The notes beneath the pieces are model-generated. The model saw only the letters and a list, made by a program, of their open reading frames with translations, searched no databases and was not told where the DNA came from. Made by a program: the position numbers and the translations under genes. Positions 1,357-53,394 of a stretch of 64,000 nt of DNA are shown piece after piece (position 1 is the stretch's first letter; every line of letters starts with the position of its first letter). Origin of the DNA: Eledone cirrhosa. Lineage: Eukaryota. Location of the stretch: contig OZ024742.1 in NCBI GenBank assembly GCA_964016885.1, positions 184,016,001-184,080,000 on the forward strand, given 5' to 3'.

Positions 1357-2620
1357 AGATGATGCATGACATACCCTGACATAGTAGATGGTTAAGATTC
1401 AGTCATGGTAGTGAGTAAGATATGACAAAACTCAATATTTATATACCTTAATATTGAGACATGAAAAAACTTACATATAATACATATAATACAGAGGGTG
1501 CGTGTGAGAAAGCTTAAAAATACATAACACCAATTTACATAACTGTTAGAGATTCAAATAATTTAAATTATTGAAGAAAGAGGAAAGAAAAAAGCAAGAC
1601 AGAGAGAAAACAGATGAGGGGATAATATAGCTAGAAGAAGTATAGAGAGCAAAACAGAATTGATCAAGGAAAGAGAGACAAAGAGGAATATTTTTTATAG
1701 TGTAAACATAGGGAGGGATGAATTATATATATCTATACAGAACTATACATTTGGGCATAGCTTTGCGAAAGAGTAAACTCGAATCTTTGAATTATTGAAT
1801 TATCTAGAAGTATTCATCAATCTAAATCTTAAATATAACTGGGTGTAATTATATGAAGGTTAATTTCCAGTCCTTAGTTAATTAGTTATATATACTATCC
1901 AAACGTATCCGATTGACCGTTAACTTTCAAATCATTTAAGTTAGTTCAGAGTAATGAATTAATCAAAGTGTATAATATTTCAGGCTATAAAAGTTTATAA
2001 ATATCTGTATTAATATTAAAGTATACTATGATATTTAATTTATAAAATCATATTTTATGAAATCATATTTAAACTATTTGCAAACATGAGAAAGAAGATA
2101 TAATATTTTCATCCTCACGAAGGTAATTCCTATTAAATTTTATTATATTATATTTAATTATTTATATTATATTGAAAATAATTCACATTATATAATTTAT
2201 AAAATAATTACAGTTATCATTTTTAAAATTAAGAATAACAATTAGAATGCCTTAAAGCATCTAAAGGCCTTATAATTAAACTTAAAAAAATATATTATTA
2301 AATTAGATATATGCATTTGTCTAAATATAAACAAAGATATATTGTCTAAAGATTAAGATGATACCTATCAGTTACATATAACATAATACAATACAATAAA
2401 TAAGTTACTGATAATATTGTTAAAAATTAAGGTTTTAGATCAATTATTATAATAGGATCATGTAATACATATATACTATAAATATACAAGTCAAACTTCA
2501 TGAATCATAAGGATAAGAACCAGATTCAAAGTAAAAAATGAAGTGATTGACTGGTTTAAAAATATAGATAATAAGAAAAATCACAAATTCATCCAAATGG
2601 ACATAGCAAGCTATTATTCT

Positions 2621-2730
2621 TCCCGCCGAGGTTGACTTTGCCTTTCATCCTTACGGGGTCGATAAAATAAAGTACCAGTAATGCACTGGGTAATTGCTGG
2701 CCTTGTGCCTAAAGTAGAAACAATTATTCT
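2621..2730 (+). mobile_element. 5'-truncated family A SINE inserted in the PLE RT motif, 8-bp TSD
   Basis: ATTATTCT is duplicated at 2613-2620 and 2723-2730. Removing the insert restores the DIASYYSSITP reading frame. Confidence 0.85.
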
Positions 2731-3206
2731 TCTATTACACCTAACCTATTAAATAAGGCTTTATCTCATGCTTACAAACATACAGCTCTAACTACGGATG
2801 AAATCGATATCATATTAACCGCTAGAAGAACTCTAATTAATTTCAACAATGAGTATTGGACCCGTTCGGATAGGAATAGAAACTTTGACATTACCATGGG
2901 ATCATCGGACTCAGCGCAGGTGGGGATTTTCATCTTAAATATGGTAAATAGAAAACTACCGGAGATTACCGGTGGTTTATATAGGGACGATATTTTATTT
3001 ACGGTTGTCAAACATAGCAATACAGAACTAAATAGGGTTAAGAAAACTATAATTGAATTCTTTAAAAATGACGACCTTAAAGAAGTTCTATTTTTGTTAA
3101 TATTTTAAATTAATATTAATAACTCCGGAAAACCATATCTGTTGAGTGCTTCCAATCTATTGTAAAACTCATTCTTTGATTTATTCATTGAACCTTGTTT
3201 AACCTT

Positions 3207-3985: not shown

Positions 3986-4058
<73 letters not shown>

Positions 4059-4089
4059 GAAATTAAAAGATGGTTAAAAAAGTTCCATG

Positions 4090-4160
4090 TATTTTATTAT
4101 GCGCATTTCAAAAACAAATATTATCCTGGGACGATATTTGCGTTCTCATCAGATAAAATA
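4090..4160 (-). ncRNA. Type I hammerhead ribozyme in a ~300-bp fold-back element (4053-4355)
   Basis: TATTTTAT-CTGATGA-[GAACGCAAATATCGTC..GATAATATTTGTTTTT]-GAAA-TGCGC-ATA/ATAAAATA. Stem III region ATGCGCAT is palindromic. Confidence 0.85.
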
Positions 4161-4355
4161 GGGAGACATGATATGAAGCTTAAAAAAACAACACTTGTGA
4201 GCAAGGTAGTGTCTAATCGCATAATAAAATACATGGAACTTTTTTAACCATCTTTTAATTTCTTCTTATATATACTCCAGTCCAATAAACTGTTGAGTGC
4301 TACTTAACCGATATTTGCATTGCTTTATTGTGCTACAATAAAACTCACCTCCTAC

Positions 4356-4389: not shown

Positions 4390-4795
4390 GTATATATATT
4401 CAAGGGCGGTGCCCCAGCATGGCCTCAGCCGGATGGCTGGAATAGGTAAAAGAGTAAAAGAGATATACATATGTATATATGTGCATGTAAATATATATAT
4501 ATACATATATACATATGTATATATATACATATATATCTATATGCATACAATATACATATATGTGTATATGATGGCTGCCCCCCTCGTTATCGAGTATGGC
4601 CATTACACTATATAACATTATTAATAATTATTAATTAATGCTATCGTGCAATGCCTGTGCGGACCGGGTGTATTTAACAATGCCAGGACTGGTTGCATTT
4701 CAGCGTACTCAATAGATAATGTAGAATACATTCCAGAGTATACAAATAGTTATTCGCTTCAACACAACACACGTAAACGGCTGTCTATATTAGTT

Positions 4796-5708: not shown

Positions 5709-5851
5709 TAATTGTTTCTACTTTTGGCACAAAGTCAGCAAATACCCAGTACATTACTGGTACTTTATTTTATCGACCCCGTAAGGATAAAAGGCAAAAT
5801 TAACCTCGCGGAATTTGAACTCAGACCGTAAAGGGACGTAACTATGCTGGA
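5709..5851 (-). mobile_element. Family A SINE, truncated
   Basis: Near-identical to 470-656. Confidence 0.8.
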
Positions 5852-6316: not shown

Positions 6317-7112
6317 AAGAGAGTGTGTGTGTGTGTGAGAGCGAGAAGGGGGATAGCGAGAGAGAGAGAGTGAAATCGGCGATGAGACGATCATTAAAGA
6401 AGAAAATTGATTGAAAGTATCATCGTAGTAATATTGCTGATTATTAATGCTTAGTTATATGGTAATGTTTGACACATGTAACTGCCTAAGATTATATATA
6501 CGGGCTGAGAAACCTCTGCTAAATATATATAGTATAGTCGCTCTTTAATTGTTTTATAGGGCTTCCGGCGAAGCACGTGACTTTGTTTAAATGACAGCGA
6601 CTATGAAATTCGTATATGTAATAAGATCCGATATCTGTGTAGTAGTAGTAGTAGTAGTAGGAGGAGGAGGGTGAGGAGGAGGGGGAGTGGTGATGGTGGT
6701 AGTTGAAACGTTGGAGAAGGCTGTTGGAGTTGACAGCGGGATTTTTGGATGGATAATTGTAGAATTGTTGGTGATTGTAGCCAATATGGGAGGGAGGCCG
6801 TGGGGTGCACGGTGTTAATTGCCGGTAGTAGAGCGTGTGGTGTTGATAACGAAGTGTGTGTGTGTAGGGGCATGCATATGTGTGTCCATGTGCTTGTAGG
6901 CTGTGATTGTACATTTATGTGAGTGTATGTATATGAAACAATCCAGGAACTCCGGCATTTTCAAGAGCTAGATCCGAACATTCGGATCTAGCTCTTGAAA
7001 CGGCCGAAGCTCGGCCGTCGGGGTCCTGAATTTTGTCTTATTACCCCCTCTACTACCTCAAGTATCGAGTACTCTAGTGAGTAATGGTCTAATTGGTTTT
7101 TACCGCCTCTAT

Positions 7113-7156: not shown

Positions 7157-8403
7157 GAGGTGTGTCAGAAAAGTTCACACTAAGAGTTTTCTCCTTCAAA
7201 GTAATCCCCCTGGAGTATGTAACTGTAATCTTAGCTCTCTGCAGCGATCACACTTTTTTCTTCATAATTTTATATACATGTCCTCTGTTTCAGGTCGTCA
7301 AGCAATGAGCACAGAGCAACGAACAAACTTGAAGTTTCTGGTACGTTTGGGGGAAAACTCCGTCAGAAGCACTGGGATTGCTGCAGCAAGTGTATGGAGA
7401 TAAGACGATGTCACGCTCACGTGTTTTTGAGTGGTGCAAGAGGTTTAAAGAAGGACGCGAGGACGTGGAAGATGACCCCAGGAGCGGAAGGCCCGCAACA
7501 ACCAGAACTGAGGTCAACGTTGAGCGCGTCAGGCAGATGGTGCGTATCGATCGTCGTCTGACTGTTCGACTGATGGCAAATGAGCTGGGCATGAATCGGA
7601 ACAGCGTCTGGAAGATTCTCACTGAAGATTTGGAAATGCGGAAAGTCTGCGCGAAGATGGTGCAAAAACTGCTGAACGATGACCAGAAGGGTCGACGCAT
7701 GCAAGTGTGCCAGGACATCCTAGAGCGTCTTGAAACCGAACCAGACTTGCTAGGGACAGTCATCACCGGTGATGAGTCATGGATCTTCGAGTACGACCCG
7801 GAAACCAAACGCCAGAGCCTTCAGTGGAAGAGTCCGTCGTCGCCAAGGCCGAAGAAAGCACGACAGTCGAAGTCCAAATCAAGGTCATGTTGATCACATT
7901 CTTCGATGTGAGGGGGGATCGTCCACTGCGAGTTCTTGGCACAGAGCAATACGATCAACCAACATGACTACAAAGAGTTACTGCAGCGTTTGCTTCGTTC
8001 AGTGCGTGAGAAGAGGCGAGAGTTGTGGCAGGACAACGTGCCTGCTGACAATGCCTTGAGCATCCGACAGTTCCTGGCCGAGAAGAACATCGCCGTGTTG
8101 GAGCAATCCCCCTACTCCTCCGACCTGGCTCCGTGTGATTTTTTCCTATTCCCCAAGCTCAAGGGGGTCATCAAGAGGACCCGTTTTGAAGACGTGGACG
8201 GCATCAAAAAGGCCGTGACGACGGAACTGCGGAGGATCCCGGAAGAATCCTTCCAGGAGTGCATGCAAGCGTGACAGAAAAGGATGGAAAAGTGCATTAG
8301 ACTCCAGGGGGATTACTTTGAAGGAGAAAACTCTTAGTGTGAATTTTGGGTTTGAAATAAATCTTTTGTGACATCAGTCCTGGAACTTTTCTGACACCCC
8401 TCG
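7156..8403 (+). mobile_element. Tc1/mariner DNA transposon with long TIRs, inserted in (TA)n
   Basis: TIR CGAGG(T/G)GTGTCAGAAAAGTTC...ACACTAAGAGTTTTCTCCTTCAAAGTAATCCCCCTGGAGT at both ends, with TA on each side. Confidence 0.95.
7305..8337 (+). pseudogene. Mariner-type DD(34)D transposase pseudogene
   Basis: HTH region (VFEWCKRFKEGREDVEDDPRSGRP), TGDESW, PYSSDLAPCDFFLF and C-terminal [11 protein letters not shown]. Frameshifts near 7350 and 7880-7915, a deletion at the second catalytic D region, and a premature stop at 8272. Confidence 0.9.
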
Positions 8404-9199: not shown

Positions 9200-11765
9200 A
9201 CGTTCTATTGGTGGTGGTGGTGGTGGTGTTAGTGCAACAGCATGGTATTGGTGGTGGTGGTGGTGGTAGTGTTGGCAACAGCATGGTTGTGGTGATGTTG
9301 GCAACAGCATGATTGAGATGGTGCCGGGGGTATGGGTGGTTGCTGCTAATTGTGTTGGTGGTGTGATAACTACCGTTATATGAGGTGTTGGTGGCGTTAT
9401 ATGACAGTGGCGGGTAATGGGGGGAAGTAGGAGTATTGTTACTGAAGTTAGTGGTAATTAGTTTTGATAATGGTGGTGGTGGTGGTAGGAATGGTGGTGG
9501 TGATGGTGGTGGTGGTGGTGGTGATCGCGGTGGCAGTAGTGGTGGTGGAGGTGATGGTGGTGGTGGTGGTTATGATGATGATGGTGGTGGTGGTGGTTAT
9601 GATGATGGTGGTGATGGTGGTGGTGGTGGTAGGAATGGTGGTGGTGATGGTGGTGGTGGTGGTGGTGATCGCGGTGGCAGTAGTGGTGGTGGAGGTGATG
9701 GTGGTGGTGGTGGTTATGATGATGGTGGTGATGGTGGTGGTGGTGGTAGGAATGGTGGTGGTGATGGTGGTGGTGGTGGTGGTGATCGCGGTGGCAGTAG
9801 TGGTGGTGGAGGTGATGGTGGTGGTGGTGGTTATGATGATGATGGTGGTGGTGGTGGTGGTGGTGGTGGTGGTGGTGGTTATGATGATGGTGGTGATGGT
9901 GGTGGTGGTGGTTATGATGATGATGGTGGTGGTGGTGGTGGTGGTGGTGGTTATGATGATGATGGTGGTGGTGGTGGTGGTGGTGGTTATGATGATGGTG
10001 GTGATGGTGGTGGTGGTGGTTATGATGATGATGGTGGTGGTGGTGTTGGTGGTTATGATGATGATGGTGGTGGAAGTGGTGGTGGTGGTGGTGGTGTTGG
10101 CAGTATTGGTGGTGTGGTGGTGGTGGTGGTCGCGGTGGCAGTAGTGGTGTTGGTGGTTATGATGATGATGGTGATGGTGGTGGAAGTGGTGGTGGTGGTG
10201 GTGTTGGTGATGGCAGTAGTGGTGGTGGTGGTGGTGGTGGTGGTGGTGGTGGTGGTCGCGGTGGCAGTAGTGGTGGTGGTGGTTATGATGATGGTGGTGA
10301 TGGTGGTGGAAGTGGTGGTGGTGGTGGTGTTGGTGATGGCAGTAGTGGTGGTGGTGGTGGTGGTGGTGGTGGTGGTGGTGGTCGCGGTGGCAGTAGTGGT
10401 GGTGGTGGTTATGATGATGGTGGTGATGGTGGTGGAAGTGGTGGTGGTGGTGGTGGTGGTGGTGGTGGTGGTGTTGGTGATGGCAGTAGTGGTGGTGTGA
10501 TGGTGGTGGTGGTGGTGGTGGTCGCGGTGGCAGTAGTGGTGGTGGTGGTTATGATGATGATGGTGATGGTGGTGGTGGTGGTGTTGGTGATGGCAGTAGT
10601 GGTGGTGGTGGTGGTGGTGATCGCGGTGGCAGTAGTGGTAGTGGTGGTTATGATGATGGTGGTGATGGTGGTGGAAGTGGTGGTGGTGGTGGTGTTGGTG
10701 ATGGCAGTAGTGGTGGTGTGATGGTGGTGGTGGTGGTTATGATGATGATGGTGCTGATGGTGGTGGTGGAGGTGGTGGTCGTGGAGGTGGTGGTGGTGGT
10801 GGTGGTGGTCGGGTTATGGTTTGCCGGTGGTGCTGATAACATAGCAGGAAGAAGATTTAGGGGCGTGGGAAGGGGGTTCTCGGCAGTTATAGTGACAATG
10901 GCGATGGTGGTGGATTTTCTCATCACTTGAACTGGTGGCGGTGGCGATGTAAGCTTCGTTTTTCTCTCGGCACTTGTGCTAGTGGCGGCGGCGGCGGTGA
11001 TGGTTTTTCTTCCTCGACTCTTGTAATGGTGGCGGCGGCCGCGATGGGATTTTTCTCGGCGGTTGTAGTGACTGAGGTATTGTTGTTGGTGTTGTTGTGA
11101 CGGTGGTGCGGTGTGGTGTCAACATCATCATCGTTGTAGTAAGGGTGGTGGCAGTAATTATGGTAAATCTGTTTCTAGTGATGATGGTGGTGGTGGTGGT
11201 GGCGATGACATTTGTAGAGTCTGTGGTAGTGGTAGTAGTAGTGGTAGTGGTATTGTCGTTATTGGTGGCGGTGATGGAGGTGGTGATTAGGATGAGGGTG
11301 GGGGTGATGTTAGTGATAGTGATGATGATGGTAGTGGTGGTGGTGCTGGTGGTGCTGGTGGTGGGATAATGGTGTTGCTTGAGGTGGTGGTGGAGGGAGA
11401 AGTGGGTTGTTGAGAAGAGGTAGTGGTGTGTGTAATGGTGGGGGTGGTGGTGGTGGTGGTGGTGGTGGAATAGTGGGCTGTTGGTACAGGGAGGTATTGG
11501 TGAGGGGTATGGGAGGGGGAGTAGTGGGAAGTTGAGAAGAAGTAGTGGTGAGGGGTAATGGTGATGCTGTTGGTGGTGGGGGCGAGGTAGTGGGATGTTG
11601 ATTGAAGGAGGGGTAGGGTGGGCTTGGTGTTGCTTGAGGTGGTGTGGTGGCGGTGTAATGGGGGGAGTAGTGGGCTGTTGAGAAGAAGTAGTGGGGAGGG
11701 GTAATGCTGGTCGTAGTGGTGAGGGGGTAGTGTTGGTTGTGGTGGTGGTGGTGGTGGTGTTAATG
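9200..11765. repeat. Degenerate (GGT)n/(GAT)n trinucleotide satellite
   Basis: G-rich on + strand, with internal higher-order duplications (AGGAATGG...GATCGCGGTGGCAGTAGT units at ~9487, 9631, 9748). Confidence 0.9.
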
Positions 11766-11869: not shown

Positions 11870-14800
11870 AACCACCGCCATTACCACCAACACCACCACC
11901 GCCATTACCACCAGCAACAACACCACCATTACCACCAACACAACCACCACCATTACCACCACCAACAACACCACCAACAACACCACCAACAACACCACCA
12001 CTACCACCAACAATAGCACCAAAAATACCACCACCACTGCCACCAAAAATACCACCGCCACTACCACCACCAACAACACCACCACTACCACCAAAAATAC
12101 CACCGCCACTACCACCAACAACACCACCGCCATTACCACCAACACAACCACCACCATTACCACCACCAACAACACCACCACTACCACCAAAAATACCACC
12201 GCCACTACCACCAACAACACCACCGCCATTACCACCAACAACACCACCACCATTACCACCACCAACAACACCACCACTACCACCAAAAATACCACCGCCA
12301 CTACCACCAACAACAACACCGCCATTACCACCAAAAATACCACCGCCACTACCACCAACAACAACACCGCCACTACCACCAAAAATACCACCGCCATTAC
12401 CACCAACACAACCACCACCATTATCACCAGCAAAACCACTACCAATACCATGAACACCACCACCATTACCACCAACAACACCACCACCATTACCACCAAC
12501 AACACCACCACCATTACCTCCAACAACACCACCACCATTACCACCAACAACACCACCACCATTACCACCAACAACACCACCACCATTACCACCAACAACA
12601 CCACCACCATTACCTCCAACAACACCACCACCAGTACCACCAACAACACCACCACCATTACCTCCAACAACACCACCACCATTACCACCAACAACACCAC
12701 CACCATTACCACCAACAACACCACCACCAGTACCACCAACAACACCACCACCATTACCACCAACAACACCACCACCATTACCACCAACAACACCACCACC
12801 ATTACCTCCAACAACACCACCACCATTACCACCAACAACACCACCACCATTACCACCAACAACACCACCACCAGTACCACCAACAACACCACCACCATTA
12901 CCACCAACAACACCACCACCATTACCACCAACAACACCACCACCATTACCTCCAACAACACCACCACCATTACCACCAACAACACCACCACCATTACCAC
13001 CAACAACACCACCACCAGTACCACCAACAACGCCACCACCATTACCACCAACAACACCACCACCATTACCTCCATTAACACCACCATCATTACTACCAAC
13101 AACAACACTACCACCATTACCACCAACAACACCACCACCATTACCTCCATTAACACCACCACCATTACCACCAACAACACCACCACCATTACCACCAACA
13201 AGGCCACCACCATTACCACCAACAACACCACCACCAGTACCACCAACAACACCACCACCATTACCACCAACAACACCACCACCATTACCACCAACAACAC
13301 CACCACCATTACCTCCAACAACACCACCACCATTACCACCAACAACACCACCACCATTACCACCAACAACACCACCACCAGTACCACCAACAACGCCACC
13401 ACCATTACCACCAACAACACCACCACCATTACCTCCATTAACACCACCATCATTACTACCAACAACAACACTACCACCATTACCACCAACAACACCACCA
13501 CCATTACCTCCATTAACACCACCACCATTACCACCAACAACACCACCACCATTACCACCAACAAGGCCACCACCATTACCACCAACAACACCACCACCAT
13601 TACCACCAACAACACCACCACCATTACTACCAACAACAACACTACCACCATTACCACCAACAACACCACCACCATTACCACCAACAACACCACCACCATT
13701 ACTACCAACAACAACACTACCACCATTACCACCATTACCACCAACAACACCACCACCATTACCTCCAACAACACCACCACCATTACCACCAACAACACCA
13801 CCACCATTACCACCAACAACACCACCACCATTACTACCAACAACAACACTACCACCATTACCACCAACAACACCACCACCAACAACACCACCAACAACAC
13901 CACCACCATTACCTCCATTAACACCACCACCATTACCACCAACAACACCACCACCATTACCACCAACAACACCACCACCATTACCTCCAACAACACCACC
14001 ACCATTACCATCAACAACAACACCACCAGCATTACCACCAACAACACCACCACCATTACCACCAACAACACCACCACCATTACCACCAACAACACCACCA
14101 CCATTACTACCAACAACAACACTACCACCATTACCACCAACAACACCACTACCAACAACACCACCAACAACACCACCACCATTACCTCCAACAACAACAC
14201 CACCATTACCACCAACAACACCACCACCAACAACACCACCAACAACACCACCACCATTACCTCCAACAACACCACCACCATTACCACCAACAACACCACC
14301 ACCATTACCAACAATAACACCACCACCATTACCTCCAACAACACCACCACCAGTACCACCAACACCACCACCGCCATTACCACCAACAACACCACCAACA
14401 TTACCACCAACATTACCTCCATTAACACCACCACCATTACCACCAACAACACCACCACCATTACCAACAACAACACCACCACCATTACCTCCAACAACAC
14501 CACCACCATTACCATCAACAACAACACCACCACCATTACCACCAACAACACCACCACCATTACCACCAACAACACCACCACCATTACCACCAACAACACC
14601 ACCACCATTACTACCAACAACAACACTACCACCATTACCACCAACAACACCACCACCAACAACACCACCAACAACACCACCACCATTACCACCAACAACA
14701 CCACCACCATTACCTCCAACAACAACACCACCATTACCACCAACAACACCACCACCAACAACACCACCAACAACACCACCACCATTACCTCCAACAACAC

Positions 14801-17800
14801 CACCACCATTACCACCAACAACACCACCACCATTACCAACAATAACACCACCACCATTACCTCCAACAACACCACCACCAGTACCACCAACACCACCACC
14901 GCCATTACCACCAACAACACCACCAACACCACCACCACCATTACGACCAACAACACCACCGCCATTACCACCAACAACACCACCGCCATTACCACGAACA
15001 ACACCACCGCCAGTACCAACAACAACACCACCACCACCATTACCACTAACAACACCACCACCGTTACAACCGCCAACACCACCACCAACATCACCAACAA
15101 CACCACCGCCATTACCAACTCCACCACCATTACCACCAACACCACCACCACCATTACCATCAACAACAACACCGCCATTACCAACAACACCACCAGTACC
15201 AACAACACCACCACCAACAACACCAACAACACCACCACCAACAACACCACCGCCAGTACCAACAACACCACCACCACCAACAACACCACCACCATTACCA
15301 CCAACAACACCACCACCATTACCAACAACAACACCACCACCAACACCACCAACAACACCACCACCATTACCACCAACAACACCACCACCATTACCACCAA
15401 CAACACCACCGCCATTACCACCAACAACACCACCGCCATTACCACCAACAACACCACCGCCATTACCAACACCACCACCATTACCACCAACACCACCACC
15501 ACCACCATTACCATCAACAACAACACCGCCATTACCAACAACACCACCAGTACCAACAACACCACCACCAACACCACCACCAACACCACCACCAACAACA
15601 CCACCGCCAGTACCAACAACACCAACACCATTACCACCAATAACACCACCACCAACAACACCACCACCATTACCACCAACAACACCACCACCAACAACAC
15701 CACCACCAGTACCACCAACAACACCACCACCAACACCACCAACAACACCACCACCATTACCACCAACAACACCACCACCATTACCTCCAACAACACCACC
15801 ACCATTACCACCAACAACACCACCACCATTACGACCAACAACAACACCACCATTACCTCCAACAACAACACCACCACCATTACCACCAACAACACCACCG
15901 CCAGTACCAACAACAACACCACCACCATTACCACCAACAACACCACCGCCAACACCACCAACAACACCACCACCATTACCAACAACAACAACAACACCAT
16001 TACCACCAACAACACCACCGCCAACACCACCAACAATACCACTGCCAGTACCAACAACAACACCACCGCCATCTGCACTATCCCCACCAGCGCCTCAACC
16101 ACCATCCACTGGCACCACCAGCACGCACACCATTAGTATCACCATCACCGGCACACACTAACAGTAACATTAATATCAACAACACCACCACGATCACCAC
16201 CAAAAACACCACCGCCACCACCACCGCAACCACCACCAGCAACACCACCGCCACCACCACCACCACCACCACCGCCAGCAACACCACCACCAACACCACC
16301 AAAAACGTCACCACAACCAGCAAGACCACCTCCGATACCACCACCACCAATACCAGCACCAACACCACCACCACCACCAACACCACCACCACCAACACCA
16401 CCACCAACGCCACCACCAACAACACCACCACCAACACCACCACCACCACCAGCAACACCACCAGCAACACCACCACCAACACCACTACCAACAACACCAC
16501 CAACACCACCACCAACACCACCACGAACAACACCACCAACACCACCAACACCAGCACCAACACCACCACCAACACCACCACCACCACCAACACCACCACC
16601 AACAACTCCACCACCAACACCACCACCAACACCACTACCACCAACACCACCACTACCACCACCAACACCACCACCAACACCGGCACCAACACCACCACCA
16701 CCAACACCACCGCCAACAACACCACCAACAACGCCACCACCAACACCACCACCACCACCAACACCACCACCAAATCCACCACCAACAATACCACCACCAC
16801 CACCACCACACCACCTCCACCAACACCACCACCAACACCACCAAACAACACCACCACCAACACCACCAACAACAACACCACCACCAACACCACCACCACC
16901 AACACCACCTCCACCAACACCACCACCAACACCACCACCAACACCACCACCACAAACACCACCACCAACACCACCACCACCACCACCAACACCACCTCCA
17001 CCAACACCACCACCAGCACCACCACCAACACCACCACCACCAACACCACCACCACCAACACCACCACCAACACCACCACCAAAAACACCACCAGCAACAC
17101 CACCACCACCACCAACACCACCACCAACACCACCACCAACAACACCACCACCAACACCACCACCAACACCACCACCACCACCACCAACACCACCACCAAC
17201 ACCACCAAACAACACCACCACCAACACCACCAACAACAACACCACCACCAACACCACCACCACCACCAACACCACCTCCACCAACACCACCACCAACACC
17301 ACCACCACCACCACCAACACCAACACCACCACCAACACCACCACCAACACCACCACCAACACCACCACCACCAACACCACCACCAACACCACCACCACCA
17401 CCAACACCACCACCAACAACACCACCACCAGTACCACCAACAACACCACCACCATTACCACCAACAACACCACCACCATTACCACCAACAACACCACCAC
17501 CATTACCTCCAACAACACCACCACCATTACCACCAACAAGACCACCACCATTACCACCAACAACACCACCACCAGTACCACCAACAACGCCACCACCATT
17601 ACCACCAACAACACCACCACCATTACCTCCATTAACACCACCACCATTACCACCAACAACACCACCACCATTACCACCAACAACACCACCACCATTACCA
17701 CCAACAACACCACCACCATTACCACCAACAACACCACCATCATTACTACCAACAACAACACTACCACCATTACCACCAACAACACCACCACCATTACCAC

Positions 17801-20800
17801 CAACAACACCACCACCATTACCACCAACAACACCACCACCATTACTGCCAACAACAACACTACCACCATTACCACCAACAACACCACCACCATTACCACC
17901 AACAACACCACCACCATTACCACCAACAACACCACCACCATTACCTCCAACAACACCACCACCATTACCACCAACAACACCACCACCATTACCACCAACA
18001 ACACCACCACCATTACTACCAACAACAACACTACCACCATTACCACCAACAACACCACCACCAACAACACCACCAACAACACCACCACCATTACCTCCAT
18101 TAACACCACCACCATTACCACCAACAACACAACCACCATTACCACCAACAACACCACCACCATTACCTCCAACAACACCACCACCATTACCATCAACAAC
18201 AACACCACCAGCATTACCACCAACAACACCACCACCATTACCACCAACAACACCACCACCATTACCACCAACAACACCACCACCATTACTACCAACAACA
18301 ACACTACCACCATTACCACCAACAACACCACTACCAACAACACCACCAACAACACCACCACCATTACCTCCAACAACAACACCACCATTACCACCAACAA
18401 CACCACCACCAACAACACCACCAACAACACCACCACCATTACCTCCAACAACACCACCACCATTACCACCAACAACACCACCACCATTACCAACAATAAC
18501 ACCACCACCATTACCTCCAACAACACCACCACCAGTACCACCAACACCACCACCGCCATTACCACCAACAACACCACCAACATTACCACCAACACCACCA
18601 CAACCATTACGACCAACAACACCACCGCCATTACCACCAACAACACCACCGCCATTACCACGAACAACACCACCACCATTACCACCAACAACACCACCAC
18701 CATTACTACCAACAACAACACTACCACCATTACCACCAACAACACCACCACCATTACCACCAACAACACCACCACCATTACTGCCAACAACAACACTACC
18801 ACCATTACCACCAACAACACCACCACCATTACCACCAACAACACCACCACCATTACCACCAACAACACCACCACCATTACCTCCAACAACACCACCACCA
18901 TTACCACCAACAACACCACCACCATTACCACCAACAACACCACCACCATTACTACCAACAACAACACTACCACCATTACCACCAACAACACCACCACCAA
19001 CAACACCACCAACAACACCACCAACATTACCTCCATTAACACCACCACCATTACCACCAACAACACCACCACCATTACCACCAACAACACAACCACCATT
19101 ACCTCCAACAACACCACCACCATTACCATCAACAACAACACCACCACCATTACCACCAACAACACCACCACCATTACCACCAACAACACCACCACCATTA
19201 CCACCAACAACACCACCACCATTACTACCAACAACAACACTACCACCATTACCACCAACAACACCACCACCAACAACACCACCAACAACACCACCACCAT
19301 TACCTCCAACAACAACACCACCATTACCACCAACAACACCACCACCAACAACACCACCAACAACACCACCACCATTACCTCCAACAACACCACCACCATT
19401 ACCACCAACAACACCACCACCATTACCACCAACAACACCACCACCATTACCACCAACACCACCACCACCATTACGACCAACAACACCACCGCCATTACCA
19501 CCAACAACACCACCGCCATTACCACGAACAACATCACCGCCAGTACCAACAACAACACCACCACCACCATTACCACTAACAACACCACCACCATTACAAC
19601 CGCCAACACCATCACCAACATCACCAACAACACCACCGCCATTACCAACTCCACCACCATTACCACCAACACCACCACCACCATTACCATCAACAACAAC
19701 ACCGCCATTACCAACAACACCACCAGTACCAACAACACCACCACCAACAACACCAACAACACCACCACCAACAACACCACCGCCAGTACCAACAACACCA
19801 CCACCAACAACAACACCACCACCATTACCACCAACAACACCACCACCATTACCAACAACAACACCACCACCAACACCACCAACAACACCACCACCATTAC
19901 CACCAACAACACCACCACCATTACCACCAACAACACCACCGCCATTACCACCAACAACACCACCGCCATTACCACCAACAACACCACCGCCATTACCAAC
20001 ACCACCACCATTACCACCAACACCACCACCACCACCATTACCATCAACAACAACACCGCCATTACCAACAACACCACCAGTACCAACAACACCACCACCA
20101 ACACCACCACCAACACCACCACCAACAACACCACCGCCAGTACCAACAACACCAACACCATTACCACCAATAACACCACCACCAACAACACCACCACCAT
20201 TACCACCAACAACACCACCACCAACAACACCACCACCAGTACCACCAACAACACCACCACCAACACCACCAACAACACCACCACCATTACCACCAACAAC
20301 ACCACCACCATTACCTCCAACAACACCACCACCATTACCACCAACAACACCACCACCATTACCAGCAACAACAACACCACCATTACCTCCAACAACAACA
20401 CCACCACCATTACCACCAACAACACCACCGCCAGTACCAACAACAACACCACCACCATTACCACCAACAACACCAACAACAACACCACCACCATTACCAA
20501 CAACAACAACAACAACACCATTACCACCAACAACACCACCGCCAACACCACCAACAATACCACTGCCAGTACCAACAACAACACCACCGCCATCTGCACT
20601 ATCCCCACCAGCGCCTCAACCACCATCCACTGGCACCACCAGCACGCACACCATTAGTATCACCATCACCGGCACACACTAACAGTAACATTACTATCAA
20701 CAACACCACCACGATCACCACCAACAACACCACCGCCACCACCACCGCAACCACCACCAGCAACACCACCGCCACCACCACCACCACCACCACCGCCAGC

Positions 20801-23800
20801 AACACCACCACCAACACCACCAAAAACGTCACCACAACCAGCAAGACCACCTCCGATACCACCACCACCAATACCAGCACCAACACCACCACCACCACCA
20901 ACACCACCACCACCAACACCACCACCAACGCCACCACCAACAACACCACCACCAACAACACCATCACCACCAGCAACACCACCAGCAACACCACCACCAA
21001 CACCACTACCAACAACACCACCAACACCACCACCAACACCACCACGAACAACACCACCAACACCACCAACACCAGCACCAACACCACCACCAACACCACC
21101 ACCACCACCAACACCACCACCAACAACTCCACCCCCAACACCACCACCAACACCACTACCACCAACACCACCACTACCACCACCAACACCACCACCAACA
21201 CCGGCACCAACACCACCACCACCAACACCACCACCAACAACACCACCAACAACGCCACCACCAACACCACCACCACCAACACCACCACCAAATCCACCAC
21301 CAACAATACCACCACCACCACCACCACCACACCACCTCCACCAACACCACCACCAACACCACCAAACAACACCACCACCAACACCACCAACAACAACACC
21401 ACCACCAACACCACCACCACCAACACCACCTCCACCAACACCACCACCAACACCACCACCAACACCACCACCACCAACACCACCACCAACACCACCACCA
21501 CCACCACCAACACCACCTCCACCAACACCACCACCAGCACCACCACCAACACCACCACCACCAACACCACCACCACCAACACCACCACCAACACCACCAC
21601 CAAAAACACCACCAGCAACACCACCACCACCACCAACACCACCACCAACACCACCACCAACAACACCACCACCAACACCACCACCAACACCACCACCACC
21701 ACCACCAACACCACCACCAACACCACCAAACAACACCACCACCAACACCACCAACAACAACACCACCACCAACACCACCACCACCAACACCACCTCCACC
21801 AACACCACCACCAACACCACCACCACCACCACCAACACCAACACCACCACCAACACCACCACCAACACCACCACCAACACCACCACCACCAACACCACCA
21901 CCAACATCACCACCACCACCAACACCACCACCAACAACACCACCACCAACACCAACACCAACACCACCACCACCACCACCAGAAACACCACCAACGACAC
22001 TACCACCAACACCACCACCACCACCAACACCACCACCACCAACACCACCACCAACACTACCACCAACACCACCACCAACAACACCACCACCACCACCAAC
22101 ACCCCCACCACCACCAACACCACCACCACCAACACCACCACCACCACCAACACCACCACCACCAACACCACCACCAACACCACCACCAACAACACCACCA
22201 CCACCACCAACACCACCACCAACACCACCACCACCAACAACACCAGCACCAACACCACCACCACCAACACCACCACCACCACCAACACCACCACCAACAC
22301 CACCACCAGCAACACCACCACCACCACCACCAACACCACCACCAACACCACCACCAGCAACACCACCACCACCACCACCAACACCACCACCAACAACACC
22401 AGCAATACCACCACCAACAACAACAACACCACCAACAACACCACCACCACCAACAACACCACCACCAACACCACCACCACCAACACCACCACCACCACCA
22501 ACACCACCACCAACACCACCACCAGCAACTCCACCACCACCAACACCACCACCACCAACACCACCACCAGCAACACCACCAACACCAACACCACCACCAA
22601 CACCACCACCAACACGACCACCACCACCAACACCAACACCACCACTAACAACACCACCAACACCACCACCACCAACACCACCACCAACAACACCACCACC
22701 AACACCACCACCACCACCACCAACAATACCACCACCAACACCACCACCACCACCACCAACACCACCACCAACACCACCACAAACATCATCACCAACACCA
22801 CCACGTACAACGGCAGCACCAGCATCTACAACACCACCAACAACACCACCACCAGCACTATCACCAACACCACCACCACCAACACCAGCACCAACAACAC
22901 CACCACCAACACCATCACCAACACCACCACCACCAACACCAGCACCAACAACACCACCACCAACACCATCACCAACACCACCACATACATCAGCAGCACC
23001 AGCACCAACACCACCACCAAGAACACCATCACCAACACCACCACATACATCAGCAACACCACCACCAACACCACCACCAACAACACCATCACCAACACCA
23101 CCACATACATCAGCAACACCACCACCAACAACACCACCACCAACACCATCACCAACACCACCACATACATCAGCAACACCACCACCAACAACACCACCAC
23201 CAACACCATCACCAACACCACCACATACATCAGCAACACCACCACCAACACCACCACCAACAACACCATCACCAACACCACCACATACATCAGCAACACC
23301 ACCACCAACAACACCACCACCAACACCATCACCAACACCACCACATACATCAGCAACACCACCACCAACAACACCACCACCAACACCATCACCAACACCA
23401 CCACATACATCAGCAACACCACCACCAACACCACCACCAACAACACCATCACCAACACCACCACATACATCAGCAACACCACCACCAACAACACCACCAC
23501 CAACACCATCACCAACACCACCACATACATCAGCAACACCACCACCAACACCACCACCAACAACACCATCACCAACACCACCACATACATCAGCAACACC
23601 ACCACCAACACCACCACCACCAACACCATCACCAACACCACCACATACATCAGCAACACCACCACCAACAACACCACCACCAACACCATCACCAACACCA
23701 CCACATACATCAGCAACACCACCACCAACAACACCACCACCAACACCATCACCAACACCACCACATACATCAGCAACACCACCACCAACAACACCACCAC

Positions 23801-23968
23801 CAACACCACCAACACCACCACATACATCAGCAACACCACCACCAACACCACCACCAACAACACCATCACCAACACCACCACATACATCAGCAACACCACC
23901 ACCAACAACACCAACACCAACACCACCAACACCACCACATACATCAGCAGCAGCAGCACCAACAACAT
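11870..23968. repeat. ~12 kb (ACC/AAC)n complex satellite with 24-bp, 60-bp and ~4.5-kb periodicities
   Basis: 24-mer ACCACCAACAACACCACCACCATT. Unique marker ATCTGCACTATCCCC at 16071 and 20592 (offset 4521). A 60-bp CCACATACATCAGC array spans ~22980-23950. Confidence 0.9.
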
Positions 23969-26676: not shown

Positions 26677-27018
26677 CACATATACATATATATATATTTT
26701 CATATTAAGGCTAAATAGTGAGTCTTGTTACTCTGGAGTATTAGCCATAACAAAGTGAATATTAAAACTCTACTTTGGTATTGAGTATCTTTTCTCTCAA
26801 CCGTCAACCACATACGGATATATATACATATATGCATATATATATGCATATATATACGCATATGTGTGTACTACAGCAAAACGTGTTGAATTCTACTTTG
26901 TTTAGTAGTTTTGCCGGTCTCCAAACCGCTGACGGATATAAATATATATTGAAAGCTCGGTTTTTGTGAGTCACTACTCAGAGTTTCTCGTTCCGAATGC
27001 GTATGAGAGAGAGACAGA

Positions 27019-27606: not shown

Positions 27607-27678
27607 ATAAACAATAATAAGCTCTGTAACGTACATAGAGCACTCTCTTTTCCTGGACCTTTCCGACGGAATTACTTC

Positions 27679-28465: not shown

Positions 28466-28726
28466 AATATATAATATATATAAATATATACATATATTAA
28501 TATATAATAAATATAAATATATAATAAATATAAATATATAATATATATAAATATATATATATAAATATATAATATATATAAATATATATATATATATGGA
28601 AAGTTATATTTAAATTGTTGGGTTACAACTAGTAAATATTTATAACTGATATAAAAGCACTCAACAAGTATTTGGAGTATATTTACGATATTAAATAAAT
28701 GGAAACTATATTTATAAAACCATATT

Positions 28727-28792
28727 TATTTCATTATATATATTTCAGGGATATCATATTAACAATATGTTATGCCTTCTTCAGACAAAATA
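28727..28792 (-). ncRNA. Type I hammerhead (mirror copy in palindrome)
   Basis: Reverse complement of 28932-28997. Confidence 0.75.
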
Positions 28793-28931
28793 CAATATAG
28801 ACAATTTTATAGATAAATAGATTTGACATACCGTTCAACATCGACTTGTATTTGAAAAATCAACTTTTTCAAATACAAGTCGATGTTGAACGGTATGTCA
28901 AATCTATTTATCTATAAAACTGTCTATATTG

Positions 28932-28997
28932 TATTTTGTCTGAAGAAGGCATAACATATTGTTAATATGATATCCCTGAAATATATATAATGAAATA
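28932..28997 (+). ncRNA. Type I hammerhead ribozyme
   Basis: TATTTTGT-CTGAAGA-[AGGCATAACATATT..AATATGATATCCCT]-GAAA-TATAT-ATA/ATGAAATA. Confidence 0.75.
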
Positions 28998-29037
28998 AAT
29001 ATGGTTTTATAAATATAGTTTCCATTTATTTAATATC

Positions 29038-29834
<797 letters not shown>

Positions 29835-30186
29835 GTAATTCCGTTGCAAAGGTCCAGGAAAAAGAGTGCTCTATGTATGTTACAGAGCTTATTATTTATT
29901 GTTGTTTATTACATAAATAAATATATATATATATTATATATATTATATATATAGATATATAGATATTATATATATTATATATATTATATATATATATATA
30001 TTATATATATATATATACATATATATATATACAGAGAATTAGTATATCTACCAACATATGTATACAGATGTATACCCATGCTAGCAAATATATATGTTAT
30101 GTCTTAGCACCTTTGTGGTTCTATGCAGGGGGATGCAGAACAATTATATGAAAGACGTAAAATAAGAAAATTTTAAAATTAACTTA

Positions 30187-30227: not shown

Positions 30228-30523
30228 CAAGAAATGACAAGACAAATACAGAGATGCAAAAAACACAGTCTTATTAGTATCGTGCTCAGTAGGAAGTAGA
30301 GAAGGTTTAACATTTCTCGCATATGTCCTTCTTCAGGAAATGGAGAGTTTGAAGAGGAAGACAGAAGTTTGAAACATCGGTGTTTGGAAAATAAAAATTA
30401 AAATTGAGAAGGCTAGGGTTGGTAGGTGAAACGTCCAGCATGCGGGAGTGGAGGCCGAGATGGAAAGTTCAGGTGTGTCAGAAGTATTATGTGTGTGCAA
30501 GATGGAGTGCATATGTGTGTGTT

Positions 30524-30711
30524 GGATTGGCAGTATCGGTAGAGGGTCGGACGCCATGCTTTGACGCATAGAGTTACGGCCCTTGCCATTCTGAGTTCAA
30601 ATCCCGCCGAGGTTAACTTTGCCTTTCATCCTTACGGGGTCGATAAAATAAAGTACCAGTAATGTACTGGGTAATTGCTAGCCTTGTGCCCCAAAATAAA
30701 AACAATTATTG
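30524..30711 (+). mobile_element. Family A SINE
   Basis: Full-length match to the reverse complement of 470-656. Confidence 0.85.
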
Positions 30712-31078: not shown

Positions 31079-31269
31079 ATATTGATAATCTGCAGTACTG
31101 GGACCGGGAAGCCTAAAAATCAAAAAAGTACTCAATACATAGTTTGATGCAGAGTGTGTATGTTAGTAAAAATAATATACTTTGACTAGTAAAAATAACA
31201 GATTAAAGTTTAAGCAAGAAATCGCTGCTTTCAACCTCTTCGGATTTTAGTCTTCACATTTATTATTAT

Positions 31270-31400: not shown

Positions 31401-31487
31401 AAATGAAGTAATTCCGTCGGAAAAGTCCAGGAAAAAAGAGTGCTCTATGTAGGTAACAGAGCTTTATCAATAAATAGACAAGGATTT

Positions 31488-37038: not shown

Positions 37039-37694
37039 CAGCATTTCTCAACCGGTGTTCTCCGGAACCCTCGGGTTCCGGAAGAGGTCGCTAGGGTTTC
37101 TGCAAGAAACAGTGATAACTAAGCTATCTATGATAAACAGTGATAAATAAGCTTTCTATGATAAAAGAAAATGTTTACCGCGTGAACTACGATAAAAATA
37201 TAAAAGGGATAGATATTAAAAATGGTTTCTGATATAGGCACCAGGCCAACAACTTTTGGGGAAGGGACAAGTCGATTAAATCGACCCCAGTGCCTTACTG
37301 GTACTTTATTTTATCGAACCCGAAAGGATGAAAGGCAAAGTTAACCTCGGCGGGATTTGAACTCGGAATATAAAGGGCCGTAACTATGTCGTAAAGCATT
37401 TTCTTCGACGCTTTACCGATACTGCCAATCCACCGCATTTATAGATATTAATAATTGTCTCTACTTTAGGCACAAGGCCAGCAATTACCCAGTGCATTAC
37501 TGGTACTTTATTTTATCGACCCCGTAAGGATGAAAGGCAAAGTCAACCTCGGCGGGATTTGAACTCAGATCGTAAAGGGACGTAACTATGCTGGAAAGCA
37601 TGGTGTCCGACCCTCTACTGATACTGCCAATCCAATGGAACACAATACTTTTTATGCAGGAGTTCCAGAAGGGTAGACAGGTTGATTAATGCTG
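37039..37694. mobile_element. hAT-type MITE with two nested family A SINEs (37222-37436, 37452-37634)
   Basis: TIRs CAGCATTTCTCAACC / GGTTGATTAATGCTG. 8-bp TSD CTCTTAAT (37031-37038) / CTCATAAT (37695-37702), 7 of 8 matching. Confidence 0.7.
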
Positions 37695-42839: not shown

Positions 42840-42967
42840 ACGAAGAAAATGTGGTAAGGAACCAGGTGGACCATAACGCACCAAAGTCCAGAATTAGCCG
42901 TCGAAACGGCTTGAGCTCAGCCGTCGGGGTCCTACTCGTTCCTATATATATATATATATATATATAT

Positions 42968-43145
42968 ACGTAGGTCCCGGGTTGAGTCGGGCATAACCAC
43001 AGTAAGTAAGGTACTCAATACATGGCAGAGTAAACATTTTTTATTGTATAGAAGGAGCTTCTACAGGACTAGTACTGTTTCATTCCTGAAGATTTCATCT
43101 GAATGAAACAGTACTAGTCCTGTAGAAGCTCCTTCTATACAATTT

Positions 43146-43150
<5 letters not shown>
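42968..43150. mobile_element. Fold-back HHR element (stem I 5' arm lost at the inversion)
   Basis: Inverted repeat 43043-43085 / 43101-43143. CTGAAGA-TTTCATCTGAAT-GAAAC-A-GTA/CTAGT at 43086-43118. GTACTCAATA motif at ~43011. Confidence 0.6.
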
Positions 43151-43550: not shown

Positions 43551-44096
43551 CATACATGCTCAGACAACAGTTGTTTCTGGCTCTGAAGAAACACAATAAT
43601 CACCACAATTAAATGGATAATCACTTATGTTAAAATTCGTACTTATATCGTATATGCAATAACTCTTCGTGAGTCTATGTGTGTATATGCAATTACCGTA
43701 TTTCCCGGCGTCGAAGTCGTTACCTTTTTCCTAAAATCAATCTAAATAATCTACCATATACTCACATATATATATACACATATATATATACTCACATATA
43801 CTCACATATATATATAGATACTCACATATATATATACTCATATATATATATATATACACACACATATCGATATATATATATATTTATATTTATTAAAATA
43901 ACAGATTAAAGTTTAAGCAAAGAATCGCTGCTTTAAACTTTAATCTGTTATTTTAATAAATATTTGCTCTACGGTTCTTATATATTTGATATATATTTAT
44001 CCTTATCGAGCCCTCTTTGGATTTTAGTCTTCAAATTTATTATTATTACTATATATATTTATATATATTTATACATACAAATTTTACTATATATAT

Positions 44097-44371
44097 ATTA
44101 ATTCAAAATATTAACAAAATAGATATTCTTGTGATCAAGTATATTTTATAATACATATTTCAGAGGTACTGAGTTAAGTTCAACAGTATGTCCTCATCAG
44201 ATAAAATAAGATGATGCATGACATACCCTGACATAGTAGATGGTTAAGATTCAGTCATGGTAGTCTGAATTAATATTAATAACTCTGGAAAACCTTTTTA
44301 TTACTGTTGAGTGCTTCCAATCTATTGTAAAACTAATTCTTTGATGTATTCATTGAACCTTGTTTAACTTT

Positions 44372-44375
<4 letters not shown>
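44097..44375. mobile_element. Non-autonomous derivative of the 1243-3210 PLE
   Basis: 44097-44263 matches 1243-1412 and 44267-44375 matches ~3107-3210. No RT. Confidence 0.85.
44142..44208 (-). ncRNA. Type I hammerhead (paralog of 1290-1356)
   Basis: Same fold as 1290-1356; cleavage triplet AUU. Confidence 0.7.
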
Positions 44376-45630: not shown

Positions 45631-47680
45631 TATTTCCCTTAAGTCAGTATTGTTTGTTTGGGTATGGTTGTTGTTGTTATTCAATTCATTTTTTCTGTTT
45701 AACTTTGGTCTTCTTAGCTCCATCTCAGTTGCTGCTCTGATTTGCCTACCTGTTGGGTCATTTCTATGTTTAGATATTATTTTAATTTCTATGTTGTCTA
45801 TATTACCATCATGTCTTTGTCTGGCGTATTCGTATAGTACTGAACTGGTTTTTTTTTTTGTGTTTTTAGTTCCCCCCAGTGTTGGTCTATTCTTTCTCCT
45901 ATGTTTCAAGCTGTCTCTATGTATGTCGTTGTCATGTTTCTGCATGTACCCTCTGTACATCTTATGCTATAGACTACATTTCTTGTTTTACAGTTTATCT
46001 GGGGATTCACTTTACATATAACACATTTCTTATTTGTACAGTGGGTTTTCTTAAAGGGCTGTTTTGCTGATCAGGGATTTTATGGTACTTCCTGGCTTTT
46101 CTACCACTTTAATCTTTAAATGGGTCTTTCTTAGGGCCTTTCTACATTGGTTATCTAATTTCCCTCCAGGGGTAGCATCCACGAACATAGCGCTCTGGTA
46201 TCTCTGGTTGTCGTACAATAAGGTGGCTTTCCCTATCTAATGTTTACTCCTATCTAAGCTATTCCATAATTTGTTCCTGTATAATGGGCACATTTCTTTC
46301 AAGTCCAGTTCTATGAGGGTCTTATACTTCTCCCTGGCTCCTTTGTATACTCTGATTCTGTCTCTTTGGTTGTAACCAGAGAACTGCATGCGGTTGATGA
46401 AGTTTTGGATGTGTCTTTCCATTTCAGTTGGGTCGCACATGCGGGACACATTCTTCATCACTCGTATCAAGTCTGCGATCAGAATATTAAATTTAGCACT
46501 ATTGGACATTGCTGAGTTTTTGAGTATCAGGTATTTGGATGCCATGGGTTTGAGTGGAGAATTGGGGCCCTCTCGTCTATAGTGTTAATCCAGAGTTTCG
46601 TGTCTAATACTGGTAGTCTATTGTTAGGGTGTTTGGAAGGGTAGTAAACAGTTACAGTTATACTCTGGTGTGTGGAGTTAGCTATCTGCTGGATGCTCTC
46701 CATTGTGCTATTTTCTAAATCGTGTTTATTAGTACTCTCTTGTGGGGGTGTTCTTATTACTATATTAATATCGTCTACGTAACGAGAGTACATGAGGAAG
46801 ACTATGGAAGACTTCGAGGAGTTCTCTGAGTCTCCTCTCCCACCATACCATAAATAAATTGGCAACATCACCAGCTATGCTAACGCCAATGGCTGCTCCC
46901 TCATTCTGAGTGTAGATCTTTTCGTTAAATTTAAACATATGGCCCTTTAGGGTAGTTTTAATACTAGCCCTGTTGCATGTGCGACCATTTTTCTCACCTG
47001 ATCATTGTTTTGGGGTGTCCATTCCATCTTACCATGGGAGTCTTTTTAGCCATTGAGGTGTGTGTGTGGGGGGGGGGGGCTACCTCTTATGGGTCTACTG
47101 TAGGAGGCCCAGTTCATCTGTGTCGACATCGCAGAACTCCACCTCACTCTCAATGATTATTTCCACACATTTTTCCACAACAAAATCAATGTTAATGGAT
47201 GGGTACAGTGATACCACATCCATACTTCTTATTATGCAGTTAGTTAAGTTTTTGTTTTGTTGCATTCATTGATTCTGCTGAGGAGGTCCTCTGTACTGTC
47301 ACATATATCTGGGGACATCTTAATTATGGGGCGTATAATCATCGAGTGGAAGTAGGAGATCCTGTAGTTGCTAGCAATATTGGCTCCGCATACAGGTCTT
47401 GTTGGTGGTCCTGTCGTTGGGTCGTTGGTTGTCTTATGGTCTTTGCGGAGCCCATACAAGGGTGGTATGTCATTGTTAAACGCTTGGAAGTTGTTGGCTC
47501 TGTGTCTACCTGGCTTTAGGATGTCGGTCCACATCATCATGTGAGCGTTGAGGATCTTCTCCCTCTCCTCGTGTTTGTTGTGTTGTTTCGCTCGTGGTGA
47601 TGATTTGGAGTTGCATAGCCTTGATATAGTTCAGCATGCTGTCTATTGACATCCTACCAGATTTATCTGTGGGTAGACAC
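45630..47680 (-). pseudogene. Penelope-like RT plus C-terminal GIY-YIG endonuclease, decayed
   Basis: In order on the minus strand: PTDKSG, PPLYGLRKDHK..RPV, SMDVVSLYPSI, GAAIGVSIAGDVANLF, YVDDI, thumb region (SGY), Cys-rich linker, NVVYSIRC..YI, LNRKNE. Multiple frameshifts. Confidence 0.85.

Positions 47681-51426: not shown

Positions 51427-51518
<92 letters not shown>

Positions 51519-53320: not shown

Positions 53321-53394
<74 letters not shown>

Follow-up and report, generated by a model that had tools for sequence, protein, structure and literature searches.

A covarying bulged hairpin, repeated in tandem, in the leaders of Hydra-clade Penelope-like elements of Eledone cirrhosa

Penelope-like elements in the window

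The window, that is the whole stretch of 64,000 nucleotides that was analysed (contig OZ024742.1, positions 184,016,001 to 184,080,000 of the forward strand), comes from the 3.0 Gb genome of Eledone cirrhosa. Its features are listed below by position in the window; H1 is the first of the two hairpins described in the following sections, MFE is minimum free energy, RT is reverse transcriptase, and the family letters (A–M) are labels of this analysis.

2450–3105, + strand: Hydra-clade RT fragment, family D; an internal jump links it to its own pLTR end
3122–3149, + strand: H1 hairpin, family D (ACTC-CGGA..TCTG-[TT]-GAGTGC), holding the motif at 3140–3149; long end at about 3209; MFE fold as drawn
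4056–4355, unstranded: family E fold-back unit; short arm (−) whose hammerhead core starts at 4152, H1 on the long arm (+)
4274–4300, + strand: H1 hairpin, family E
4705–4739, − strand: H1 hairpin, family G; no (TA)n within 80 nt
7047–7072, + strand: H1 hairpin, relative of family A (CCTC-TAC..GTA-[TC]-GAGTAC)
26767–26788, + strand: H1 hairpin, family I; MFE prefers another fold
27621–27643, + strand: H1 with a GCTC/GAGC stem, outside the pattern of the initial annotation; same family at 29866–29888 (−) and 31440–31462 (−)
28598–29038, unstranded: family C fold-back unit; long arm (−) with a hammerhead core at 28784 and H1 at 28657–28678, short arm (+) with a core at 28940
31128–31155, − strand: H1 hairpin, family L
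42840–42942, unstranded: family A fold-back unit with one long and one short end; the long arm lost H1 by a short deletion
42969–43148, unstranded: family B fold-back unit; H1 at 43011–43031 on the long arm (−), hammerhead core at 43086 on the short arm (+)
43966–44013, + strand: H1 variant (GCTC-TA..TA-[TC]-GAGCCC), relative of family L
44090–44374, unstranded: family D fold-back unit; short arm (−) with a hammerhead core at 44200, long arm (+) with H1 at 44282–44314
47951–47986, − strand: H1 hairpin, family G
51345–51427, − strand: H1 hairpin with a 55-nt loop, family M (ACTC-TGTAGC..GCTACA-[TT]-GAGTTC)
53393–53625, unstranded: family F fold-back unit; the long arm (−) is 5′-truncated inside the loop and so keeps only the 3′ strand of H1 (53439–53448)
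63951–63976, − strand: H1 hairpin, family A; MFE prefers another fold

With part of the RT fragment (2713–3105) as query, near-full-length copies were retrieved whose 5′ pLTR belongs to the family of the sites at 3140 and 44305 (family D), and Hydra ORFs likewise follow in families A, B, C, E and F. The elements carry a single ORF (open frames of 750 aa and of 784–786 aa) with VY..YIG (GIY-YIG) C-terminal to the RT, RWR in place of RWK, DKT, and a linker reading CNCRNRPDC in family D and CNCPDRSIC in family A. These motifs, together with a by-eye likeness to published consensi, assign them to the Hydra clade; Pfam gave no informative match for five fragments from the window. A core predicted by pattern match to be that of a hammerhead (CTGANGA..GAAA) is present in families B, C, D and E and is non-canonical in the tandem units of family A, and Rfam reports no hammerhead at these elements. 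In a sample of 1.254 Mb of unselected genome, 144 of 162 3′ ends are bounded by a microsatellite, which fits insertion into (TA)n. The family A unit measures 3.5 kb and is thus longer than is typical of Hydra elements (generally under 3 kb); two loci (L341 and L342) hold head-to-tail arrays of it with a period of 3.53–3.54 kb, and their 784–786 aa frames are open, so family A is probably young.

A hammerhead family outside the Hydra clade (window 47680–47790), with no similarity to the Hydra protein (best E 0.83), has no hairpin, and of its 17 copies listed 14 terminate at or close to the same position. The interval 45900–47870 (−) holds a broken non-Hydra Penelope-like RT that is fused to an end with a hammerhead; this end lacks the hairpin and has mostly a single 3′ terminus. 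The window further contains a 12-kb array of a 24-bp CAC/ACC-rich unit (11871–23938), with a 1.3-kb TGG-rich array ahead of it on the other strand (9471–10809). What we take to be a mariner-type transposase fragment, from its DESW..YDPETK peptide, lies at 7290–8000 (+), and 48400–49360 (−) is presumably the C-terminal zinc-finger region of a LINE ORF2. An abundant interspersed repeat of about 190 bp, which we assume to be SINE-like, occurs at 470–660, 2620–2725, 5710–5850, 30520–30710, 37440–37640, 61710–61890 and elsewhere, and often adjoins (TA)n.

The motif as one strand of a bulged hairpin

The initial annotation had described a motif, (T/C)(A/G)TTGAGT(A/G)C, lying at 13 sites. All 13 were recovered on the reported strands, displaced by at most 10 nt; the one at 26779 reads TATTGAGTAT. 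The motif was said to keep a similar distance from the terminal (TA)n, which holds for 12 of the 13 sites (42–69 nt from motif end to the next (TA)5) but not for the one at 4705–4714 (177 nt); the corresponding distance is 39–60 nt in eight family references and 25–79 nt across clusters. Positional enrichment, the check proposed with the motif, was found in the window and in held-out DNA alike, against a null of no enrichment: the strict motif is concentrated 25–75 nt 5′ of (TA)5, with 8 of 9 occurrences in this zone in the window (0.6 expected), 23 of 27 in a held-out 200-kb flank (2.2 expected, background 8.0%) and 17 of 28 in 39 held-out random 10-kb stretches (1.4 expected, background 5.1%). 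The enrichment is confined to one strand, the reverse complement falling in the zone at 1/10 occurrences in the window, 3/36 in the flank and 1/41 in the random stretches. The form YRTRGAGTRC is also enriched in the zone (6/14 in the flank), so the fourth base of the motif is free.

The sequences around the motif had been called mostly unrelated, and flank similarity does place the 13 sites in 9–10 families; they therefore do not collapse into one or two homologous ones. (Family counts rest on flank similarity and protein comparison; one clustering, which chained several families into a cluster of 50, was not used for them.) The motif is thus cross-family in that many families carry it, but the six that could be traced to an ORF (A–F) all belong to one clade, Hydra. 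Their proteins are 38–62% identical, and similarity between their leaders is limited to short matches, at the motifs or among families C, D, E and F; the motif is accordingly shared by descent within one clade and was kept while its flanks diverged. Its reported position downstream of the hammerhead is true of a family and not of each copy, since in many short copies the hammerhead lies only on the inverted partner arm.

That the motif might be a coding signature (I/V-E-Y/C/F), a chance occurrence or the product of one or two families can be dismissed with near certainty. One frame of the 10-mer does give a plausible tripeptide, and the frame of family A is open across the motif; however, the synonymous GAA form is not enriched in the zone 25–75 nt 5′ of (TA)5 (2/7 and 0/4), which argues against coding, and the sites lie upstream of an ATG that aligns with homologues. 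The coding motif was rejected on these two grounds, and the protein divergence given above speaks against an origin in few families.

The motif is the 3′ strand of a bulged hairpin, RCUC-YN..NR-[UN bulge]-GAGY-RC. Nearly every site in the window has ACTC or GCTC upstream of it, and the bases that come next pair with those preceding the TN of the motif: CGGA/TCTG at 3140, CAGT/ACTG at 4291, TGCAT/ATGTA at 31137 and, spanning the 55-nt loop, TGTAGC/GCTACA at 51354. The descriptor RCTC-stem-[TN]-GAGY-RC matched 92 times in the 1.254 Mb of unselected genome, and 82 of these matches lie 25–85 nt 5′ of a microsatellite (7.5 expected). Neither bulges starting with A, C or G (2/7) nor seven other stem cores (3/34) were enriched near microsatellites in the same sample, whereas three looser descriptors also were (no bulge 16/25, 1-nt bulge 6/6, tail other than RC 21/48), although these may be the same sites in another register. 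A loose detector with G-U allowed throughout the lower stem matched almost anything, and its counts were not used.

Pairing could be assessed independently on elements from outside this genome. A profile of 58 homologues yielded 98 Hydra loci from metagenomes and MAG bins; a metagenome scan with a single protein as query gave no matches, and viral contigs gave none either. Sites were defined by the two anchors alone, with no pairing imposed: 107 of 137 GAGYRC sites have an upstream RCTC, and 70 of these are non-redundant. The first three pairs next to the bulge are formed in 69, 54 and 49 of the 70 sites, as opposed to permutation means of 53, 29 and 28, and none of 20000 permutations reached the observed pairing, a control that removes relatedness among the loci only in part. 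Pair 1 is C-G in 41 sites and U-A in 27, and Y-R in 69 of the 70. The fourth lower pair varies on both strands, being ACTC/GAGT in most H1 of this genome and GCTC/GAGC in H2 and in 67 of the 70 outside sites. Two loci (L270 and L282) carry GCAC..TT-GTGCAC, with GCAC/GTGC replacing GCTC/GAGC; this compensatory flip of the central pair speaks for pairing but not for a strict TAR triple. The bulge begins with U in 69 of 70 sites, and its second base is U in 50, C in 14 and A in 5; TN precedes 118 of the 137 GAGYRC sites in the UTRs, and an unpaired RC-U follows the stem in 67 of the 70. Pairs 1–3 include 12 of the G-U type and 3 A-C, an excess that favours the sense strand as the structured one. 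Thermodynamic folding is weak, the MFE structure being the drawn hairpin in 6 of 12 window sites with z below −2 in 2 of 12.

The outside hairpins lie in the leaders, 24–120 nt before the start codon. On the sense strand they number 59 in the 5′ UTRs (14.1 kb), 20 in the 3′ regions (38.4 kb) and 3 in the ORFs (177 kb); on the antisense strand the corresponding numbers are 2, 5 and 1. Among the 54 outside loci with at least 150 nt upstream, two strict sites were found in 30, one in 15 and none in 9, and several loci with one or none show variant hairpins or 5′ truncation by eye. Variant leaders with GAGATC, GAGAAC, GAGCTC or GAGCCC tails occur in L245, L258, L235, L240, L242 and L266 and would probably be caught by a covariance model. 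Twenty contigs of bacterial MAG bins (L270–L289) carry Hydra-clade elements, most likely as host DNA within the bins.

The initial annotation had suggested looking in other taxa. In the consensi given in the supplement of PMC8557442, as far as it was covered, the hairpin can be recognised by eye in Hydra-2_Amil (coral), Hydra-2_Ajap and, twice, Hydra-1_Ajap (sea cucumber), and is degenerate or absent in Hydra-1_Crog, Hydra-1_Obim and Hydra-1_Amil. Searching the Naiad, Chlamys and Hydra consensi for six 8-mers, which misses other 8-mers and matches split across lines, gave 22 matches; four are these Hydra hairpins, and the rest are mostly without a hairpin by eye. One hairpin-like match in the Naiad_Mmer 3′ UTR, about 500 nt from the end, is probably due to chance.

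The motif had not been recognised as a described one, and this still stands: no published description and no Rfam family was found. Rfam gave no match at gathering score in 16 loci, two chance matches (E up to 1) in six loci, and, on the window, 378 matches of which the best 150 all score below gathering and lie on microsatellites. As far as Rfam and the openly accessible text of the literature were searched, then, this is an undescribed paired RNA element of Hydra-clade Penelope-like elements.

Two hairpins, two ends and fold-back insertions

In full-length copies two tandem hairpins, H1 and H2, separate the hammerhead from the start codon. Two kinds of 3′ end occur in each family, a short one immediately before H1 and a long one 30–80 nt after the motif, and in full-length copies of family D H2 stands just past the long end. 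Predicted from family D, H2 was then found 6–9 nt past the long end in families A, E, C and F, followed by the Hydra ORF. RCTC stands at one dominant spacing past the long end in 443 pattern matches of family A (some counted twice), 287 of E, 171 of C and 323 of F, while reversed-control patterns for these four families gave none; the searches were conditioned on RCTC within 14–16 nt and hence show the existence and spacing of H2, not its frequency. The loci inspected in these families have the full H2 plus the Hydra ORF. H1 and H2 are 70–138 nt apart. Family B (two subfamilies) has no bulged H2 and only a 4-bp GCAC/GTGC hairpin 7–10 nt past the long end, yet long ends are made; a family B1 pattern with RCTC gave a single, chance-like match. 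For family G, no read-through copy with H2 was present among 13 pattern matches, 10 of which were inspected.

The ends are positioned relative to the hairpins. Among the 144 microsatellite-bounded 3′ ends of the 1.254 Mb sample (a count that leaves out the 18 ends without such a boundary), 131 lie 2–13 nt 5′ of H1 or H2, where 50.7 would be expected if ends were spread over all TAT/ATA sites; this zone was chosen after inspection of the junctions, and the plain hairpin serves as the H2 position of family B. The distance from an end to the next hairpin is nearly constant, with medians of 6–12 nt in 15 of 16 family/end pairs, and of 15 truncation points in the outside loci, 11 are no more than 4 nt away from a hairpin. 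The H2 loop of family F is about 110 nt long, so the end tracks the 5′ strand of the hairpin and not the bulge. Insertion junctions overlap UA-rich microhomology. The distance of 35–80 nt from motif to 3′ end noted earlier is therefore to be read differently: the motif, as part of H1, does lie near the terminus, but the near-constant distance is that from an insertion end to the next hairpin. H1 is tied to the other, shorter end, and the terminus itself is tied to H2, which truncated copies lack. What had been seen was thus H1 as a passenger inside the tail; the hairpin next to an end is not copied.

It could be argued that the hairpins are regulators of the 5′ leader, with TAR-like control of elongation or translation or a role in cis packaging, and that UA microhomology alone sets the ends. 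Their position before the start codon and the bulge pattern, which copies that of TAR and 7SK, suit such a role; however, only 36 of 135 TAT/ATA sites in the references fall in the zones that hold 131 of 144 ends. We regard this account as very improbable, though the hairpins may have a second, regulatory role.

Every fold-back unit with both ends classifiable combines one short and one long end (54/54, 27 expected; five further units with an unclassified or read-through arm are not counted in the 54). This bears on a different account, in which the hairpins direct cleavage or termination of the transcript 5–10 nt upstream, so that ordinary target-primed reverse transcription (TPRT) would start from two RNA 3′ ends. 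Ends at a fixed offset from a downstream structure are what such processing would leave, but independent RNA species would not force a short and a long end into every unit, and in PMC11167929, in the portions drawn on here, initiation is internal and not at RNA ends; this explanation, too, is improbable, if slightly less so than leader regulation.

Two further arrangements were observed. At window 42870–42890 and at a second locus (L349), H1 has been lost by a short deletion between the hairpin arms, as if the RT had skipped a folded stem. Short tandem units made of a hammerhead, H1, H2 and a few codons occur at L322, L323, L379 and L384 and at G000 C9:23835467–23835890 and are reminiscent of retrozyme-type mini-elements.

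A proposed role and comparison with known systems

The covariation of the hairpin, the tandem H1 and H2, the end offset of 2–13 nt and the short-plus-long composition of each fold-back unit are direct observations. As insertions stop a few bases before either hairpin, the pair likely tells the RT where copying starts. We consider it probable that the tandem hairpins are RNA handles bound by the protein of the element and that reverse transcription begins just upstream of them, in an RNA-guided double initiation. The hairpin would act as sense-strand RNA, and the RT-endonuclease would bind it, probably by way of an arginine-rich stretch and a TAR-like U.A-U pocket. Structure prediction for a homologue (pLDDT 92) gives a fold closest to that of telomerase TERT, and a basic stretch before WFNPP, with R485 in 98% and R487 in 97% of 58 homologues, is a candidate reader of the hairpin. 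The nicked (TA)n target would pair with a UA-rich template of 2–5 nt just 5′ of the hairpin and prime the cDNA, and under this proposal the hairpin itself would not be copied. Two priming events on one RNA, at H1 and at H2 and on opposite target strands, would give the inverted pair; the tail would correspond to the H1–H2 spacing, with H1 riding inside it. With the start sites at the 5′ end of the unit that bears the ORF, a tandem or circular template would be needed for full-length copies. The shared cis signal for RT/endonuclease proposed by the initial annotation thus remains the best reading, but its unit is a bulged hairpin and not a linear 10-mer, and the binding and initiation steps are those of the model just outlined.

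A more specific version, in which Hydra-clade elements independently evolved paired TAR-like arginine-sandwich hairpins and two telomerase-like protein copies bind one RNA and launch two primed reverse transcriptions on opposite (TA)n strands, is put forward tentatively, its odds being somewhat below even. If true, it would give Penelope-like elements as a whole their first defined RNA recognition element, and a simple ruler rule would explain both the one-sided tail and the fold-back insertions.

The hairpins might instead act in single-stranded DNA, where GIY-YIG would recognise a cDNA or donor intermediate and nick a few bases upstream, the ends being resolution cuts. Covariation and end offsets fit DNA as well as RNA, and the portions of the literature cited here include both a proposal of endonuclease-mediated tail resolution (PMC8557442) and a citation of earlier work in which the tail is needed for endonuclease recognition (PMC11167929). 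We nevertheless think it unlikely: it is the sense strand that is structured, and first-strand cDNA does not provide that strand; the conservation pattern fits an RNA major-groove pocket; and in the sole in vitro system, as described in the part of PMC11167929 used, the tail ends are RT start sites on RNA.

The origin of the inverted, one-tailed insertions of Penelope-like elements is a question for which PMC8557442, in the part used, calls for mechanistic work. A covarying, twice-repeated RNA element at a fixed offset makes it testable with few RNA mutants. The hairpin also provides a ligand for structural work on an RT related to telomerase and a marker by which Hydra elements and their ends can be annotated; it might, in addition, serve as a portable tag that brings about internal initiation on an RNA of choice.

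The elements agree with the Hydra clade as characterised in the sections of PMC8557442 (Craig et al. 2021) used here in their single ORF of RT and C-terminal GIY-YIG, in RW(K/R), DKT and CxCX5C, and in the predicted type I hammerhead, the (TA)n targets, the inverted 5′-truncated partner and the tail at one end. They differ in tail length, 62–134 nt here compared with 30–40 bp there, and the Hydra section and supplement tables of that paper, as far as covered, describe no hairpin after the hammerhead.

The closest mechanistic precedent is the Poseidon element PAc. According to the portions of PMC11167929 (Frangieh et al. 2024) used here, its protein nicks both strands of AT-rich DNA; in vitro, its reverse transcription begins internally, at two positions that bound the tail, uses both target strands and depends on RNA lying 3′ of these positions. 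Two sites bounding the tail and the use of both target strands are common to the two systems, and the RNA required by PAc lies where the Hydra hairpins do, 3′ of the sites. PAc, however, belongs to another clade, its sites are inside the ORF, and those portions of the paper define no binding motif; the Poseidon RNA in its Fig. S1 is without this hairpin by eye, and the in vitro precedent thus relies on another signal.

The local pattern R-U-N-G-A-G opposite C-U-C-Y is that of the TAR bulge: like the arginine sandwich motif of HIV TAR and 7SK (PMC6189040 and PMC11885821, each in part), it combines a purine-containing pair, a bulged U, a free second base and G-C, A-U and G-C pairs. In TAR, by the part of PMC11885821 used, U23 is indispensable and the base after it free; HIV-2 naturally has a bulge of 2 nt, and swaps of the flanking G-C pairs are not tolerated. 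Unlike TAR, the present hairpin has its bulge on the 3′ strand, the loop on the other side and a conserved unpaired RCU after the stem; two loci flip the central pair, and H2 of family B shows GTG/CAC. On this comparison, the likeness is one of local pattern and not of homology. The 3′ stem-loops of the stringent LINEs UnaL2 and ZfL2 (PMC1636434 and PMC4176376, as far as covered) are likewise small irregular hairpins that serve as cis signals for the element's own protein. In those LINEs the hairpin stands in the 3′ tail, 5′ of initiation, and is copied, whereas the Hydra hairpins are paired and lie 3′ of the proposed start site, uncopied from it: the short ends fall ahead of H1 and the long ones ahead of H2.
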